Shown piece after piece: positions 25,740 through 64,000 of a stretch of 64,000 nt of DNA. The position numbers and the translations under genes were made by a program. Source of the stretch: Eledone cirrhosa (Eukaryota). The stretch lies in the NCBI GenBank assembly GCA_964016885.1, contig OZ024740.1:330646001-330710000 (forward strand), read 5' to 3'. The notes beneath the pieces were generated by a model, which did not search any database, was not told the origin of the DNA, and saw nothing but the letters and a program-made list of their open reading frames with translations. Position 1 is the stretch's first letter. Every line of letters starts with the position of its first letter.

Positions 25740-29090
<3,351 letters not shown>

Positions 29091-44410: not shown

Positions 44411-45079
44411 TAAATTAAGTTACTTATCTATAAATTACAGTGTAGTCTATTAAGAAGTACTAAAGGTGTTCATATCAGGATGATTACCTTCTATTATGGT
44501 GTGCCACACCTGAACATTCTATAAGAAGAGTTAGACCTCCAAATCAATGATCTTTGTAAGTGTATTCCACCCGCAGGACCTGGCAGGGTCTTATTACTAT
44601 ATATGACTCCCGGTATGCTCTGGGTCATTGTATGTCTGAATTCTTGGCAAATTTAAATATCACCAGGGTGGTCCGGAGATCAATTCTCTCATATAAAGAC
44701 CCTAATCTGGCCATCAAGCAATACATAAACTCTCAACTCATATATAAATTAGGTTTCTTATCTATAAATTACAGTGTAGTCTACTAAGATGTATTAAAGG
44801 TGTTCAAATCAGGGTGATTACCTTCTATTATGGAGTGCCACACCTGAACAATCTATAAGAAGAGTCAGACCTCCAAATCAATGATCTTTGTAAGTGTAGT
44901 CTACCCGCAGAACCTGGCAGGTTCTTATTACTATATAAGACTCCCGGTAAGCTCTGGGTCATTGTATGTCTGAATCCTTGGCAAATTTAAATATCACCAG
45001 GGTGGTCCGGAGACCAATTCTCTCATAGAAAGACACTAATCTGGCCATCAAGCAATACAGAAACTCCTAACTCATATAT
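44411..45079. repeat. Tandem duplication of a 334-bp unit
   Basis: ttatctataaattacagtgtagtcta at 44424 and 44758; colinear through ctcatatat. Confidence 0.9.
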
Positions 45080-56424: not shown

Positions 56425-59400
56425 TATTAAAATAACAGATTAAAGTTTAAGCAAAGAATCGCTGCTTTCACCCTTAACGGGATCTTCTGCAACTAAACAA
56501 GTCAATCTATGAACGCAGAAGTAAATATTTCAAAAAACGTTGCAACCGAAGGAAGACAGGAAGGCGATACTTTGGTTCGTGGAAACATTCCCTGGCAAAG
56601 AACGAAAAAAAAAAAAGGTAATACGTCATTATTTGGAGCGGTGAAAACAATTACACGCAAAGACAATACCACGTTTATGGTATAAAAGAAGTCGTAGACT
56701 AATATTCTATTAGGGGGTTCATGGAGACGTTCACTGGCAATGAACGGAAAAAACGAGGATAATACGTAATTATGTGTACCGATGAGAACACTTACACGCA
56801 TAGACAAAACCACGTAAATGGTATAAATGAAGTCGTAGACTAATATTCTATTAGGTGGTTGATGGAGACGTTCTCTGGCAATGAACGGAAAAAACGAAGA
56901 TAATACGTCATTATGTGGACCGATGAGAACAATTTCACGCAAAGACAAAACAACGTAAATGGTATAACTGAAGTCGTAGACTAAAATTCTCTCTAAGAAA
57001 CCGAATCATCCTCGGCTTCAGAGTTAAGAATAAAGTAAATAAAATACAGAGGTAATTGAAATTAAGTATATACATACACACATCCATATACGTACAAACA
57101 CAAGCATTCGCAAAACACTCGCCATGGGTATACAAATAGAAGCACGTACACAAAAAATCCCGCAGGCACATACAGAACCCACGCAACGCCTATAACTGCA
57201 CACATACGAACGTATACACCAAATACACATAAAAATATATATAAAAATATATATATATATATGTGTGTGTGTGCATGTACACACATAATTAAATAAACGT
57301 ATATAAATAAATAAATACGTATATAATGCGCGCACACACATACCTACATGTAAATACACATATGTACGCAGACGTACCTCGCCAAAACACTAAGTACACA
57401 TCCCACACAGCCTACATACGTACGAACCCGCATACTCACACAGACGCAAACCTCACGTATACACATAACCAAATGCACATGTACCAAAATATATAATATA
57501 TAGTCCATAACATATACAAGCAAATATACGTACCTTCACAAAATATACAGGTAATATATACTTACCTATACAAATAAGTAATGGTATAAACATAACATAT
57601 ACTTAGCTACCACATCAAGACGTAAAATATCCGCGTATTGTCCGTACTATCCGTTAGGGTATAATGTGGGGCTGTAATACAGGAAGGTTTTGTGCAATTT
57701 ATGTTTACAAGCCGAAATTGCCTCATAATTTTTGTTTAAGATGTGGTCTTTGGCGTAGAGTATTTCCAGGGCCTCAGCGGCGCAGAGGTCTCATGGTCTT
57801 TATTTCCGTTCTACGATCTAGCCCCAGCTAGGATCTCCCAGTGTAACTTATATTGGGTGTGGTTGTCTTTTAGATTCCAGATATAAGCTGAAAGTGACGT
57901 CATATTCCTTCTTAGAGGGTAACGTAAATAATGGGTATGCATGTAAAGACGCTGCTTGAATCTGTTGGCGGTTAACTCTATGTAGGCCCTACGGGACGTG
58001 GGTGTTTCAACCTTACATTTGTAGACAATGCTACTAGAGAGGCATTTCCCGGATAGTGGGCAGTCAACCCGATTCCTACAATTACAGTTAGTACTAGCTG
58101 CAGGGTTGCACGTGTTCCTAGGCCTAGGTAATTTAGCTAAATTTGAAGAAGTGATGTTATGTGCAAGGTTAGGAGTCGTAGAGTAAAATATTTTAATGGT
58201 ATTTCTATTAAAAATGTTATTATATTTATGTGCTGAAGGGAAATACTTCTTAATAAGGGGGGAAAAGATCTTAGCTAATGGTGTGGCCACCTCCATATTA
58301 TATAGTGGGATATACCATATAATGCATCGGGATCTATTTTTCCTTGGTTTATGCTCATACTTAGTATATGCTACCTTATCGACAAATCCATTCCGAGCAA
58401 GAGCTTCATTGTAATATGTGGAATGGTCGTTGAAAATATGCTCGTTTGTAGATAGATGGGAAAGCCTCAAAGAAACGTTTCTTACCAGGTTCGGCTTTCT
58501 ATACGGGTAGTGCAAGCCATTCGAGAAATTTAGGGTAACGTCGAAGTAATTAACGACCGAGAGGTTGGCCTCAACATATATGGAGAGGTTGAAGCCTTTA
58601 AAGAACGTGGGCCGCACTTTGTCATGGTCAAAAACCATCATCACGGTACAAACCACCGCCCACGTTGGGGAATTCTTCCTTGATAGAGAAAAGAAGGAAA
58701 AGGCCGATCGTTGGCGCCCATACTCACGTCGAATGGGGTACTATTAGATTTTTAATCCAAATAGAGTCGTCGAAATTAATCACCGACTTACGGGCATTGA
58801 GGATGATATCAATTTCGAAATCCTTAATCTTTGTGAGTGTTTTAGCGAAATTGAGAGCTCTAAGGAGAAGTGGTAAAGTGAAGGATAGGTAGTAATTATT
58901 GATGTCGAATTGGATAAAACGGCAAGTTACTTGTTGCATATGCCGTTGAACCAATCAATCACCGCGAAAGAATTGTTCCACAGGCAAAATCCTTTTACTA
59001 AGTCTACCTAAATCGTTTTTTCCGTTCATTGCCAGAGAACGTCTCCATGAATCACCTAATAGAATATTAGTCTACGACTTCATTTATACCATAAATGTGG
59101 TATTGACTTTGCGTGTAATTGTTTTCACCGCTCCAAATAATGACATATTATCTTTGTTTTTTGTTCGTTCTTTGCAGGGAACGTTTCCATGAACCAAAGT
59201 ATCGTCTTCCTGTCTTCTTTCAGTTGCAACGTTTTTTGAAATATTTATTTCTACGCTCACAGATTGACTTTTTTAGTTTAAGAAGATCCAGTTAAGGGTG
59301 AAAGCAGCGATTCTTTGCTTAAACTTTAATCTGTTATTTTAATAAATATTTGCTCTACGGTTCTTATATATTTGATATATATTTATCCTTATCGAGCCCT

Positions 59401-59432: not shown

Positions 59433-59440
<8 letters not shown>
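56425..59440 (-). mobile_element. 5'-truncated PLE with inverted pLTRs
   Basis: QFDINNYY, NYFDVTLN, YRKPN, CNCRNRVDCPLSGKCLSSSIVYKC..AYIELT..FKQRLY.H; 56425-56755 is the reverse complement of 59010-59345; HHR-like motifs at 56444-56494 (-) and 59275-59325 (+). Confidence 0.9.
56575..57000. repeat. Three tandem ~141-bp units inside the pLTR
   Basis: ggtataa..gaagtcgtagactaa at ~56680, ~56820 and ~56961. Confidence 0.85.
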
Positions 59441-59481
<41 letters not shown>

Positions 59482-59485
<4 letters not shown>

Positions 59486-60602
59486 AATGATATAGATATC
59501 CCAGTTGTACTAGGTACCCACGGAAATATATATGGTGTCTATAATAGTGGTTGTTCTATGGTACTAATTTGAGATACCAGAACTGTAAATATGAGCGGAA
59601 CAAGTAAACACTAAACAATCTTTTAAATAAATTAAAATACGATTTAAATATTTACCTCTTCTAGTGCCATGACCGACGGTTTCGCTTATCAAAAGATTGG
59701 AAATTCAGAGAATTTCCAATGGAAGATATAGCTCTTCAGATAGCTTTTCCAAATCTACTAGACATAAGTCCGTACAGGTGTAGATATATCACCCTCTGCC
59801 CGGTGAATGAATCAAGCCGTTAAAATGACCGACACACTTATTGGACCGTTAGAGAAATCGGGAATTATAGACTCGCTGATATTTCATGCTGCTAGAAATA
59901 TCAGCACGATACAGCATATGTTTTTCTCTACATTAAGGAGAATTAGATAAATGATATAGATATCCCAGTAGGTACTAGGTACCCACGGAAATATATATGG
60001 TGTCTATAATAGTGGTTGTTCTATGATATTAATTTGAGATACCAGAACTGTAAATATCTAAATATTTTCCTTATTTAAATCGTATTTTAATTTATTTAAA
60101 AGATTGTTTAATGTTTACTTGTTCCGCTCATATTTACAGTTCTGGTATCTCAAATTAGTACCATAGAACAACCACTATTATAGATACCCTTTATATTTCC
60201 GTGGGTACCTAGTACCTACTGGGATATCTATATCATTTATCTAATTCTCCTTAATGTAGAGAACAAATATGCTGTATCATGCTGCTATTTCTAGCAGCAT
60301 AAAATATCAGCGAGTCTATAATTCCCGCTTTCTCCAACGGTCAAATAAGTGTGTGGGTCATTTTAAGGGTTTGATTCATTCACTCGGCAGAGGGTGATAT
60401 ATCTACATCTATATGGACTTATGTCTAGTAGATTTGGAAAAGATATCTGAAGAGCTATATCTTTCCATTGGAAATTCTCTGAATTTCCAATCTTTTGATA
60501 AGCGAAACCGTCGGTCATGGCACTAGAAGAGGTAAATATTTAAATCGTATTTTAATTTATTTAAAAGATTATTTAAAAGTAATGTTTACTTGTTCCGCTC
60601 AT
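59482..60602. mobile_element. Retrozyme-like 465-nt monomer: ~1.25 copies (-) joined to ~1.15 copies (+)
   Basis: ataaatgatatagatatcccag at 59482 and 59947; tatttaaatcgtattttaatttatttaaaagatt at 60072 and 60537; arms are mutually inverted; no protein-like ORF; (TA)n flanks. Confidence 0.88.
59666..59744 (-). ncRNA. Hammerhead ribozyme with long hairpin stem II
   Basis: GCTAT-CTGAAGA-GCT.ATATC..ATTGGAAATTC-TCT-GAATTTCCAAT..GATA.AGC-GAAAC-CGTCG-GTC-ATGGC; twin at 60442-60521 (+). Confidence 0.85.
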
Positions 60603-60612
60603 ATATATATAA

Positions 60613-60691
<79 letters not shown>

Positions 60692-60692
<1 letters not shown>

Positions 60693-61753
60693 ATAACAAA
60701 AAAATAGAAACAGACATATACTACAAGCCCACAGACTCCAAGCAATATCTCCCCTTCAACTCTTGCCACCCTAGACACGTTAAAATTAATATTCCCTACA
60801 ACTTAGCCAAGAGAATCTGTACTATAGTCTCCAATAAAAACATCTGCTAATTACGGCTACAAGAACTAAATGACACACTCATAGGCAGGGACTACCCTGC
60901 ATCACTAATTGACAATGGAATCCAACGTGCCCTAAAACTCAGTACCCAGGACCTTAGACACCCTAAAGTAAATCAACCAAAACTAAAAGCTCTTCCATAC
61001 ATCTCCACACACAACCCCCTCAACAATGAGGCCTTTTGACACCATCTTCCAGAACATCCCTGTATTGAAAAAGGACCATAGAATGAACTAAATTCTACGA
61101 ACACACGATATCATAAAGAGCAAAAGACAATCCAAGTCAATGAAAAACATCTTAACACATGCCAAAGTACTGCCAACCACAACAACGAAACCCACAGTAA
61201 AAAAATGCGATAGACCCAACTGTGGCATTTGCATCAACCTAATAGAGGGTTCGGAATTCTATTTCAAAGATGGACAACGTTTTATAGTAAAACACAATTT
61301 CACATGTGCATCGGAAAATCTAATATATGTATTAACTTGTTCAGGTTGTCGAGAACAATACATAGGCCAGACCAAAAACAGCCTCCGCCAACGCATGACT
61401 GTCCATAGATCCCAAATCAAAATACGGGAATACAGGAAAATACCACTGAGTGAACACATAGATACCTGTGCCGCCCAAAATCATCCCAACTTCAGAATCT
61501 TTCCCCTCTACAAATTTAAAGATAATTCCACCCACACCCAGCGCATCAGCAAGGAATCTTACTTCATTAACAAATACGGACCCCGTCTAAACACTTCTCC
61601 CTAAGACGAACCCACAACATACACACGTCAACATACATACCTACATCAGCACACATCTCTACCCACATATAAACACAATGACATACGTAAACACACATGC
61701 TCTATGGTGCTACACAAAAAATATATGTGCATATATATATGTATATATATGTA

Positions 61754-61833
<80 letters not shown>

Positions 61834-61983
61834 ATATATGTATGTGTATATATATATATAGTGAATATCATTTCACACCTTTTATTGTTAAGATTTTTGA
61901 TGTTCTATTAAGAGAACCGATTTTACTGAAAAAATCGAATAATGTACACCATTTTACCAGGGGGAAAAAAATACTGGTCCACC

Positions 61984-62015
<32 letters not shown>

Positions 62016-62196
62016 CACACACACATACACACGCGTACATCAACATACAAAGAGACTTATATATACACACACACACACACACGCACTTCTCCGTATAAGA
62101 CAAAAGCTAAAAAATATCTTTTGGCATGCTAAAATACCCCCCATTGCTTTCAGACACATTCTTACTGACCATCCCTGCCACCACGAATTACTCTGC

Positions 62197-62247
<51 letters not shown>

Positions 62248-62337
62248 ATCTTAATAGCCATTTGACACACATCGCTGCTAACCATTATCACAACATCGAA
62301 CACCTTACTACTACTACTACACACACACACACACACA

Positions 62338-62410
<73 letters not shown>

Positions 62411-62750
62411 TTGTTGTGAAAGTGTCATTTCTCAATCTTGGCGCAGAACCAATTTTTTATTCACATGACCTCTACCAACCAATCAAAATTGTTTTGACCA
62501 CAAGCATTTTTGCTGGAGCTACTTTTTTAACATAAAAACAGGTAGAATTCCCAAGAGCAAACAGCACGGACACTCTATCTCAAAATTATTTTTGAAAAGC
62601 ATTTAGAAATGCGCAACCGGTAAAAACTTAAAAACTTAAAACCACAACTGAATACTAACCCATACAATCACTAATACTCTTTTATTCCTAATTAAACCAT
62701 TTTTCAACTGTGAACAATTTGTCAGCATTTTCTATTCCGTTTACCAATAT
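60692..62750 (+). mobile_element. 5'-truncated Neptune-like PLE (RT thumb, GIY-YIG, 3' region)
   Basis: IETDIYYKPTDSKQYL..., KKCDRPNCGIC, LIYVLTCSGCREQYIGQT; starts directly in (TA)n. HHR-like TTT-TTGAAAA-GCATTT-AG-AAATGC-GcAAC-CG-GTA-AAA at 62589-62626. Confidence 0.88.
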
Positions 62751-64000
62751 ATATATATAGCAGCTCCTCGAGACAGGGATGTTCAATGCAGGGATGTGTG
62801 GTGTGTATATTTTAATTCAAATCGATCGATCGCCGCATGGAATGACGTTTTTCATTTTTTTTAGGTTTACGTAATTAATTCTTCATAAAATGTATGTATG
62901 AATAATAAAATTGTTGAAATTAACGTGAAACAATATTTGCTACGTAGCATGTTAAGTTAAATTGTAATAAATGGAGATGTATTTTTTTATTTCTATTTCT
63001 TATGATACGAATACATATATATTTTTTTTTCAATGTTATTTTAATATTTATGCTTCCAGGCTATAAATGTATGCTATTATATGCTTCAAACCAGCAACTT
63101 ACAAAATCATTTCAATATTCCATATAAACTGTGCGAAAATAGAAAATGGAAAATGAAAATAGAAAAGGTTGCTATGTTGCTGTGTTTATCTTTATTTAAC
63201 AGTTTGTCGTAAAAAATGAGGAAATGTTTCAAATGTGATCTACGTCAAAAGTAAATGCTTACCCCGCTGTGAATAGTAGAAATAAGAAATGAAAGAGGTT
63301 TAGAGGTTTGAATGGCTGGATTTTCATTAAATTAGGAATGTTTTACATTAATTTGGTTCTATATTTCTATTTTTATTTTTTTATAACGGCAACATTTCTT
63401 CTTCATAAGTTGTCTTTATAGAATGCTTGAAGATCAACACTGTGCACTCATAAACATTTGTTTATAATAAATATTACATGCTGTCTATAACTATTAACAT
63501 GAGATAATATGTTATCTTGACGGCAATATTGATGTTGCGTTATTTACCCACTAAGTCATGCTGAAATAAGCTATGATTAAATTCATTTCAGTCGTGAGCG
63601 TTTTGTATTATAATCTATCAGTATATACAGTCATGAATATTCAAAATGGTTTTTCCTTTTTAAATCAGTAGGTGTTGTTTGATTTTGGCTGCTAATATTG
63701 TCTGGATGCCGTCTATTACGGGGATTTTGCATCTGCCCATTGTTGTTGATTTATGATTATTTAGAGCTATATTTTGTTGTTTAATGAGATTTGGAAGTTA
63801 TGTCTAGCAAATAATCTTACCTTTGAGAGTTTCCTTATTTGACTCTTGTCTAAATATACCCCGTGTCATGATACGTATGTCATATGGCGCTTTCTAAAGT
63901 TCAACGAAAGTAGAGTCATGTTTATATATAACTAGTTTTAGCGTATGTAAATAACAACTATAATTATGTTTACATATCTGGTAGCGAATATAATTGTTTT

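Follow-up and report, generated by a model that had tools for sequence, protein, structure and literature searches.

The window, by which we mean the whole 64,000-nt stretch of Eledone cirrhosa DNA that was analysed, contains an element that is in all likelihood one insertion of a genome-wide, ORF-less non-LTR retrozyme family, judged from its sequence and that of its relatives. Copies of the family carry the integration signature of PLEs, as read from their ends, and were very likely mobilised by PLE machinery; the original prediction had likewise paired an ORF-less retrozyme with such machinery, and is supported in this. On balance it is probable that, for this ORF-less hammerhead repeat with two fixed ends and a (TA)n target, the template is a circular monomer RNA, which a PLE RT/endonuclease copies simultaneously from the two sites. 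Retrozymes and PLE tails have each been published already; what is added here is genomic evidence joining them.

Self-BLAST and a repeat search of the window resolve the element into a 465-nt unit, present as a minus arm followed by a plus arm, head-to-head, between (TA)n runs. Direct repeats are spaced 465 nt apart, and complementarity between the arms is 92–99%. The features are as follows.

59436..59483, no strand: left (TA)n target run (period-2 repeat called at 59436–59499).
~59484..60057, minus strand: minus arm, 1.24 units (580-nt alignment), with its 3' end at family site B and its 5' end at unit position 59.
59484..59592, minus strand: terminal A-to-B segment of ~107 nt, equivalent to the PLE 'tail' and present at the minus-arm end only, from comparison of ends across the family.
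59666..59744, minus strand: type I hammerhead of the minus arm, intact (5-bp stem I, 49-nt stem II, 3-bp stem III), with a predicted cut after the GUC at 59671.
60058..60071, no strand: junction spacer of 14 nt, which by eye resembles a short inverted piece of the unit.
60072..60603, plus strand: plus arm, 1.15 units, with its 3' end at family site A, ~80 nt beyond the predicted cut.
60442..60521, plus strand: type I hammerhead of the plus arm, with an intact core but a stem I that a private C>A at 60443 weakens, and with a predicted cut after 60516.
60604..60690, no strand: right (TA)n target run (period-2 repeat called at 60601–60690).
60689..62753, plus strand: neighbour outside the element, a 5'-truncated young autonomous PLE (RT C-terminus, GIY-YIG and 3' UTR) in the same TA run.

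This anatomy agrees closely with what had been predicted, namely about 1.25 units on the minus strand and 1.15 on the plus strand, one hammerhead per arm, no protein-like ORF and a (TA)n setting. Each arm has one type I core (minus arm: CUGAAGA at 59739, GAAAC...GUC at 59683–59671; plus arm: CUGAAGA at 60447, GAAAC...GUC at 60504–60516), the longest stop-free frame on either strand is 58 aa when read round the unit, and (TA)n was found on both sides. Unit GC is 34–35%, no terminal repeats other than the unit itself were seen in the element, and the (TA)n context leaves no way to delimit a target-site duplication. Having a single cut site on each strand, the window copy could not release a monomer by itself, and is thus a product of the process rather than a source of circles.

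Exact matches to the hammerhead core number 228 with GUC and 1,348 with GUA across the 3.0-Gb assembly, against 0 for reversed-pattern controls; the 228 exact matches alone show that occurrence of the core is not due to chance. Searching the same assembly with the unit returned 2,403 candidates, of which at least 39, besides the window copy, scored at 90–96% identity. Sister subfamilies at 68–75% identity have units of 457–488 nt, wrap beyond one unit and share the same two ends. The full type I core, head-to-tail multimers, lack of protein ORF and LTR, GC below 45% and small monomer are those of non-LTR retrozymes; the monomer, at 457–488 nt, is above the 170–400 nt given in the main text of PMC7229834 and within the 51–972 bp given in the text of 10.64898/2026.07.22.740005. 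Further type I hammerhead motifs, unrelated in appearance and with a short stem II, were noticed at L196:1501-1550, L200:1501-1550 and L103:2369-2475.

Rfam at the gathering score gave 0 matches in the window, probably because of the 49-nt stem II. Unconstrained MFE folds of the hammerhead regions contained no catalytic fold (weak z-scores of -1.75 and -1.09), which appeared only under constraints; with the C>A change at 60443 in stem I of the plus arm, the constrained hammerhead fold has -12.8 versus -19.2 kcal/mol. Among 14 aligned copies, chosen to span the subfamilies and including two with damaged 3' sides, the core is invariant in 14/14 except at N7. Stems I–III of these copies have 89% of cells paired, with nine double changes, a level reached by 0/500 shuffles of a kind that ignores relatedness. 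Between subfamilies an A-U pair in stem I becomes G-C and a U-A pair in stem II becomes C-G, and these compensatory changes point to selection on the ribozyme fold. Folded as a circle, the monomer is more stable than its shuffled versions (40 of them; z -4.5 and -3.6), and the antisense strand of the unit does no less well than the sense strand (z -5.4).

The 3' ends of the copies are fixed at two sites. Across 103 distinct insertions of the window's subfamily group, site A lies ~80 nt past the cut and site B ~107 nt beyond A, while 5' ends are scattered over 101 distinct positions among 133 arms. In this sample, whose loci were picked by best score or, in one set, by position on one contig, and whose proportions are therefore not genome-wide estimates, 67 of the 74 single-arm insertions end at A, three at B and four elsewhere; the 27 inverted insertions comprise 24 A+B, three A+other, and no A+A or B+B. 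The complex loci L166 and L172 are counted apart from these two groups, and the 103 leave out L118 and L124 (pieces of the long array), L083 (near-identical to L082) and duplicates. Single arms end more often at B in a sister sample ordered by position, so the A bias is specific to the subfamily; end calls for L268–L291, which are biased to B by the query, were excluded from A/B ratios. In the first 87 loci, 94 of 102 A or B ends run into TA. The window copy, with its minus arm ending at B and its plus arm at A, is a typical A+B insertion.

The original prediction had each arm starting at a different point of the unit, and expected copies to be circular permutations that never adjoin an ORF. 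The 5' starts do differ at random, but the 3' ends are fixed family-wide (B in the minus arm and A in the plus arm of the window copy), and free circular permutation is thereby ruled out. The other half of the expectation held: with three PLE protein queries, no PLE ORF was contiguous with any arm in partly overlapping sets of 87, 45 and 50 loci. A fixed 3' end, variable 5' truncation, partial tandems, a head-to-head inverted copy, a one-sided tail and a microsatellite target, all of PLE type, are present together. The tail, at ~107 nt, exceeds both the published 30–40 bp and the lengths seen in this genome's two PLE families (41 and 63 nt). An inverted form with one longer end is the PLE insertion signature already described in the relevant parts of PMC8557442 and PMC3846280, and is not a new geometry.

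For the inverted arm, a template switch or foldback had been predicted, in which a single RT passes unit length and its own cDNA then serves as template, through folding back or switching. Self-priming of this kind is proposed for PLE inverted junctions in PMC3846280, and 13 of the 24 A+B insertions are compatible with snap-back by length. However, snap-back onto the first cDNA is feasible only if one arm is wholly contained in the other, and in 11/24, the window locus included, neither arm can be copied from the cDNA of the other. The arm 5' ends, counted by hand, lie within 11 nt of each other at three of 23 junctions, which, like the short inverted spacer at the window locus, is in keeping with foldback, but are asymmetric by at least 24 nt at the other 20. 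Foldback also fails to account for the second arm invariably ending at whichever fixed site the first arm did not (24 of the 27 inverted insertions are A+B), and as a general mechanism this part of the prediction is not upheld; we consider the mechanism highly improbable. Given the 11/24 insertions that fit neither snap-back direction, the asymmetric 5' ends and the junction gaps (-4 to +1 nt in 16/23, counted by hand), both arms are best read as having been primed independently on sense RNA and then joined.

Copying past unit length, another element of the original prediction, is supported by 47 of the 133 arms, which exceed 470 nt and wrap back into the unit, and by arrays of ~29 and 19 + 9 units; the circular template that it proposed is retained as the best reading. 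We think it fairly probable that the template is circular RNA. Among arms found via the post-cut segment, 29/30 run through the cut site (the 30 include repeat matches on a few insertions), and a cleaved linear monomer is therefore not the usual template. There is no pile-up of 5' ends at the cut site; two of 133 arms start exactly there (L005 and L172), which hints weakly at linear templates in some cases.

A young sister insertion (L292+L293; G000:C1:156425600-156438700) is a 13-kb foldback multimer of a 457-nt unit, in the order TA, end A, 19 cut sites, inversion, nine cut sites, end B, TA. Monomers are identical in 17/26 cases, and two variants are present in 26/26 and absent from 8/8 monomers at four other loci; for one of these variants, all 27 exact matches in the genome fall inside the insertion. 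Such uniformity is in favour of a rolling-circle mechanism, with a single RNA circle read repeatedly from two sites. Two other young loci (L295 and L296) also have variants fixed in all of their own units. Against this, the change 194T>G, beside start site B, recurs in 5/26 units of L292+L293 without periodicity, which a single error-free circle does not explain.

The main rival needs no circle: an uncleaved read-through transcript of a tandem array would be primed internally at A and B, and unequal crossover would later build up the long arrays. In vitro, PAc works on RNA that has not been processed and starts internally (PMC11167929), loci with many units that could supply such transcripts exist (~29 units; 19 + 9 units), and the short stem III suggests slow or dimer-dependent cleavage, going by the portion of PMC4209133 on this point. 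The ~29-unit array (L159–L161; G000:C3:162363000-162376350), which runs head-to-tail between TA runs and ends at site A, contains an inserted foreign repeat and later duplications (unit pairs differing by 1–3% versus a mean of 8.1%). The recurrence of 194T>G within L292+L293 also fits a linear template. The same older array is, however, mostly star-like, with 184 singleton minor alleles; the L292+L293 variant is confined, within the assembly, to this insertion, where every unit of the two inverted arms has it; and the 194T>G pattern, counted by hand from the 3' end, does not match between the two arms. The variants fixed within L295 and L296 likewise tell against it. Uniform arrays could also come from a homogeneous linear multimer transcript of a locus missing from the assembly or haplotype, or from assembly homogenisation, gene conversion or unequal crossover. 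Overall, the uncleaved read-through transcript is an unlikely template.

Whether the two arms share a template was addressed through variants. At lineage-shared sites, differences amount to 0.76% within arms and 0.74% between arms, versus 2.4% between insertions, which counts for one template per insertion. Rare alleles are common to partner arms in 19/122 cases (1/7 at the window locus) against a background of 0–6% per locus; this sharing is above background but thin, and most rare alleles are post-insertion mutations. That both arms of an insertion derive from one RNA molecule is a possibility to which we give slightly less than an even chance.

The same genome provides autonomous PLEs as a control and as a possible helper. 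The neighbour at 60689–62753 belongs to an autonomous family with RVT_1 and GIY-YIG domains and no homology to the 465-nt unit, and is a separate insertion in the same TA run as the retrozyme. The unit was considered as the 5' pLTR of this adjacent PLE and rejected: no homology to it is present in 37 other loci of that PLE family, which has 3' ends of its own. These are two, 41 nt apart, and are combined as long+short in 14/14 fully visible inverted insertions, a count that excludes the lone short+short case (L066), which runs off the end of the sequence compared at that locus. The family encodes a 784-aa RT–GIY-YIG frame and a 455-aa upstream frame without a Pfam match. It is very young (at least 150 copies at 99–100% protein identity, these being the best 150 of 20,425 candidates), and by eye its 3' UTR has an apparent degenerate hammerhead core.

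A second autonomous family, PLE-B (L207–L236), also has two ends; these are separated by ~63 nt, and the first lies ~75 nt beyond a degenerate hammerhead. Its pLTR has a degenerate core and a palindromic stem III, and of 30 3' ends 10 are short, 18 long and two other. The two-end rule shared by these autonomous families, together with the published PLE tail, is what identifies the PLE integration signature in the retrozyme. Both families have degenerate hammerhead cores, versus the full conserved core of the retrozyme. PLE-B was also considered as the direct parent and rejected, there being no pLTR homology except in a chimera (L197) and one 35-nt match; no homology of the unit to the pLTR of either family was found. 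Two retrozyme/PLE-B chimeras were found (L197:1300-1620 and L206:1217-1690), of which one switches to PLE-B at the hammerhead cut and the other adds a PLE-B tail at site A. They offer a lead to the identity of the helper, which is putatively 'Neptune-type' on the basis of a CX4CXXC motif before GIY-YIG, as that motif is set out in part of PMC8557442.

The unit might alternatively be the pLTR of an autonomous PLE not yet found, the copies being its 5'-truncated stumps. In Xenopus, retrozymes derive from PLE pLTRs (10.64898/2026.07.22.740005, main text), the geometry seen here (cut to A ~80 nt, then tail) matches that of PLE-B, and only a small share of the more than 2,400 candidates was inspected, with three PLE protein queries. 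Nevertheless, the arms longer than one unit wrap into the unit and not into an ORF, and the searches above found no PLE ORF leading directly into an arm. The same-strand upstream PLE matches at L028, L077 and L201 lie 195–858 nt away, behind TA-rich flank, whereas PLE-B pLTR loci have an ORF upstream in ~10/30 cases. We regard this origin as very unlikely. The original prediction had set its retrozyme against copies that are always the fixed-ended pLTR of an ORF-bearing PLE. The ends did prove to be fixed, but none of the copies inspected is a pLTR of this kind, and the retrozyme reading therefore stands.

Elsewhere in the window, a second, different PLE-like ORF fragment lies at 57811–58900 (minus strand); it has no Pfam match, and is taken for a PLE from its motifs and its tblastn relatives. 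It is flanked by inverted arrays of a 141-nt unit at ~56440–57000 (plus) and 58950–59330 (minus), in which no clear hammerhead was seen; this unit is extremely abundant in contigs of three sequencing runs from one sample. Two more PLE-B-like palindromic stem III motifs occur at 25799 (minus) and 38520 (plus), and a 334-nt tandem dimer with a 93% match at 44411–45079.

The copying of a circle from both sites, which we prefer, would proceed in five steps. Multimeric loci would be transcribed, self-cleave and circularise, by analogy with known retrozymes and in keeping with the observed conservation of the hammerhead. A Neptune-type PLE protein would then nick both strands of a (TA)n run, this being the target observed. 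Synthesis would start from one nick at internal site A and from the other at B, 107 nt away, as suggested by in vitro data for PAc and by the observed fixed ends and A+B rule. How far each RT travels round the circle would vary, as do the observed lengths, which range from less than one unit up to 19. Joining of the two cDNA ends, with the 0–4 nt overlap seen at junctions, would give head-to-head arms; extension of only one nick would give a single arm, mostly ending at A in the window's subfamily. It is possible, though we would put it just under evens, that two PLE RTs, from the two nicked (TA)n strands, load on the same RNA circle 107 nt apart and complete up to 19 and nine laps. If so, the genome records rolling-circle, twin-primed integration of a ribozyme circle, animal retrozymes are tied to PLE enzymes, and the PLE tail and inversion are explained as one event.

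In twin priming of L1, two nicks prime on a single RNA, and the resulting inversion is joined through microhomology; the annealing point of the second primer varies, and the two parts have no sequence in common. In contrast, both starts are fixed here and the arms cover the same sequence.

How retrozymes return to DNA, and by which enzyme, is stated to be open in PMC7229834, PMC7761336 and 10.64898/2026.07.22.740005, as is the way in which PLEs form inverted one-tailed insertions in PMC8557442. The present family gives a handle on both questions: its RNA is short and well defined, its two start sites are mapped, its target is known to be (TA)n, its host genome has young PLEs with intact ORFs, and its insertions preserve a record of many laps of a single template. 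Circle can thus be compared with linear RNA, and site A with site B, directly in vitro. The family also points to a way in which circular RNA could naturally give rise to targeted, multimeric insertions in DNA.

Metazoan non-LTR retrozymes were described by Cervera and de la Pena (2020, PMC7229834), whose main text gives units of 220–240 nt in coral, 350–390 nt in mussel and ~330–350 nt in axolotl, shows circles, and proposes rolling-circle RT and PLE mobilisation. The making of cDNA longer than the unit from circles, and mobilisation by PLEs, are likewise proposed, without being shown, in the retrozyme papers PMC7229834, PMC7761336 and PMC4209133, in the portions of them that concern mobility. 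Like the retrozymes of PMC7229834, as presented there in the main text, the present family is ORF-less, has GC below 45%, a type I hammerhead with weak stem III and head-to-tail units ranging from about one to long multimers, has a highly self-paired monomer and coexists with autonomous PLEs. It differs from them in its unit of 457–488 nt and its 49-nt branched stem II. The main text of PMC7229834 makes no mention of fixed A/B ends, of inverted A+B arms or of a (TA)n target (0 matches to 'inverted', 'orientation' or 'target site'), although its figures S6/S9 may bear on them. A literature search, which covered few subscription papers, found no description of a retrozyme joined to a PLE tail, of retrozyme insertion ends or of a cephalopod retrozyme.

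Vertebrate retrozymes are non-autonomous PLE derivatives according to Li, Clavereau and Pollet (2026, 10.64898/2026.07.22.740005), on evidence of co-occurrence and pLTR phylogeny; the text reports consensus lengths of 51–972 bp, with dispersed monomers and rarer multimers. The conclusion on origin and helper is the same here, and the unit size is within that range. Unlike the elements of that study, which from abstract to discussion gives no insertion-end anatomy, the present family shows no pLTR homology to the two PLE families compared, but has the integration signature of PLEs.

The inverted 5'-truncated copy and the 30–40-bp one-sided tail are PLE hallmarks in the pertinent text of Craig (2021, PMC8557442) and Arkhipova (2013, PMC3846280). 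Frangieh (2024, PMC11167929) reports a PLE protein that cleaves and extends both target strands, with two internal RNA starts defining the tail and a dimer predicted; hammerhead cleavage is not needed for insertion by PAc in vitro. As described in the parts of PMC3846280, PMC8557442 and PMC11167929 that deal with insertion, EN+ PLEs share with this family 5' truncation, partial tandems, a head-to-head inverted copy, a one-end extension, two internal RT starts, an AT-rich or microsatellite target and a start ~80–90 nt past the hammerhead cut. The retrozyme differs from them in having no ORF, a tail of ~107 nt rather than 30–40, and arms that can both be long multimers, and from the two autonomous PLE families of its own genome in keeping a fully conserved hammerhead core.
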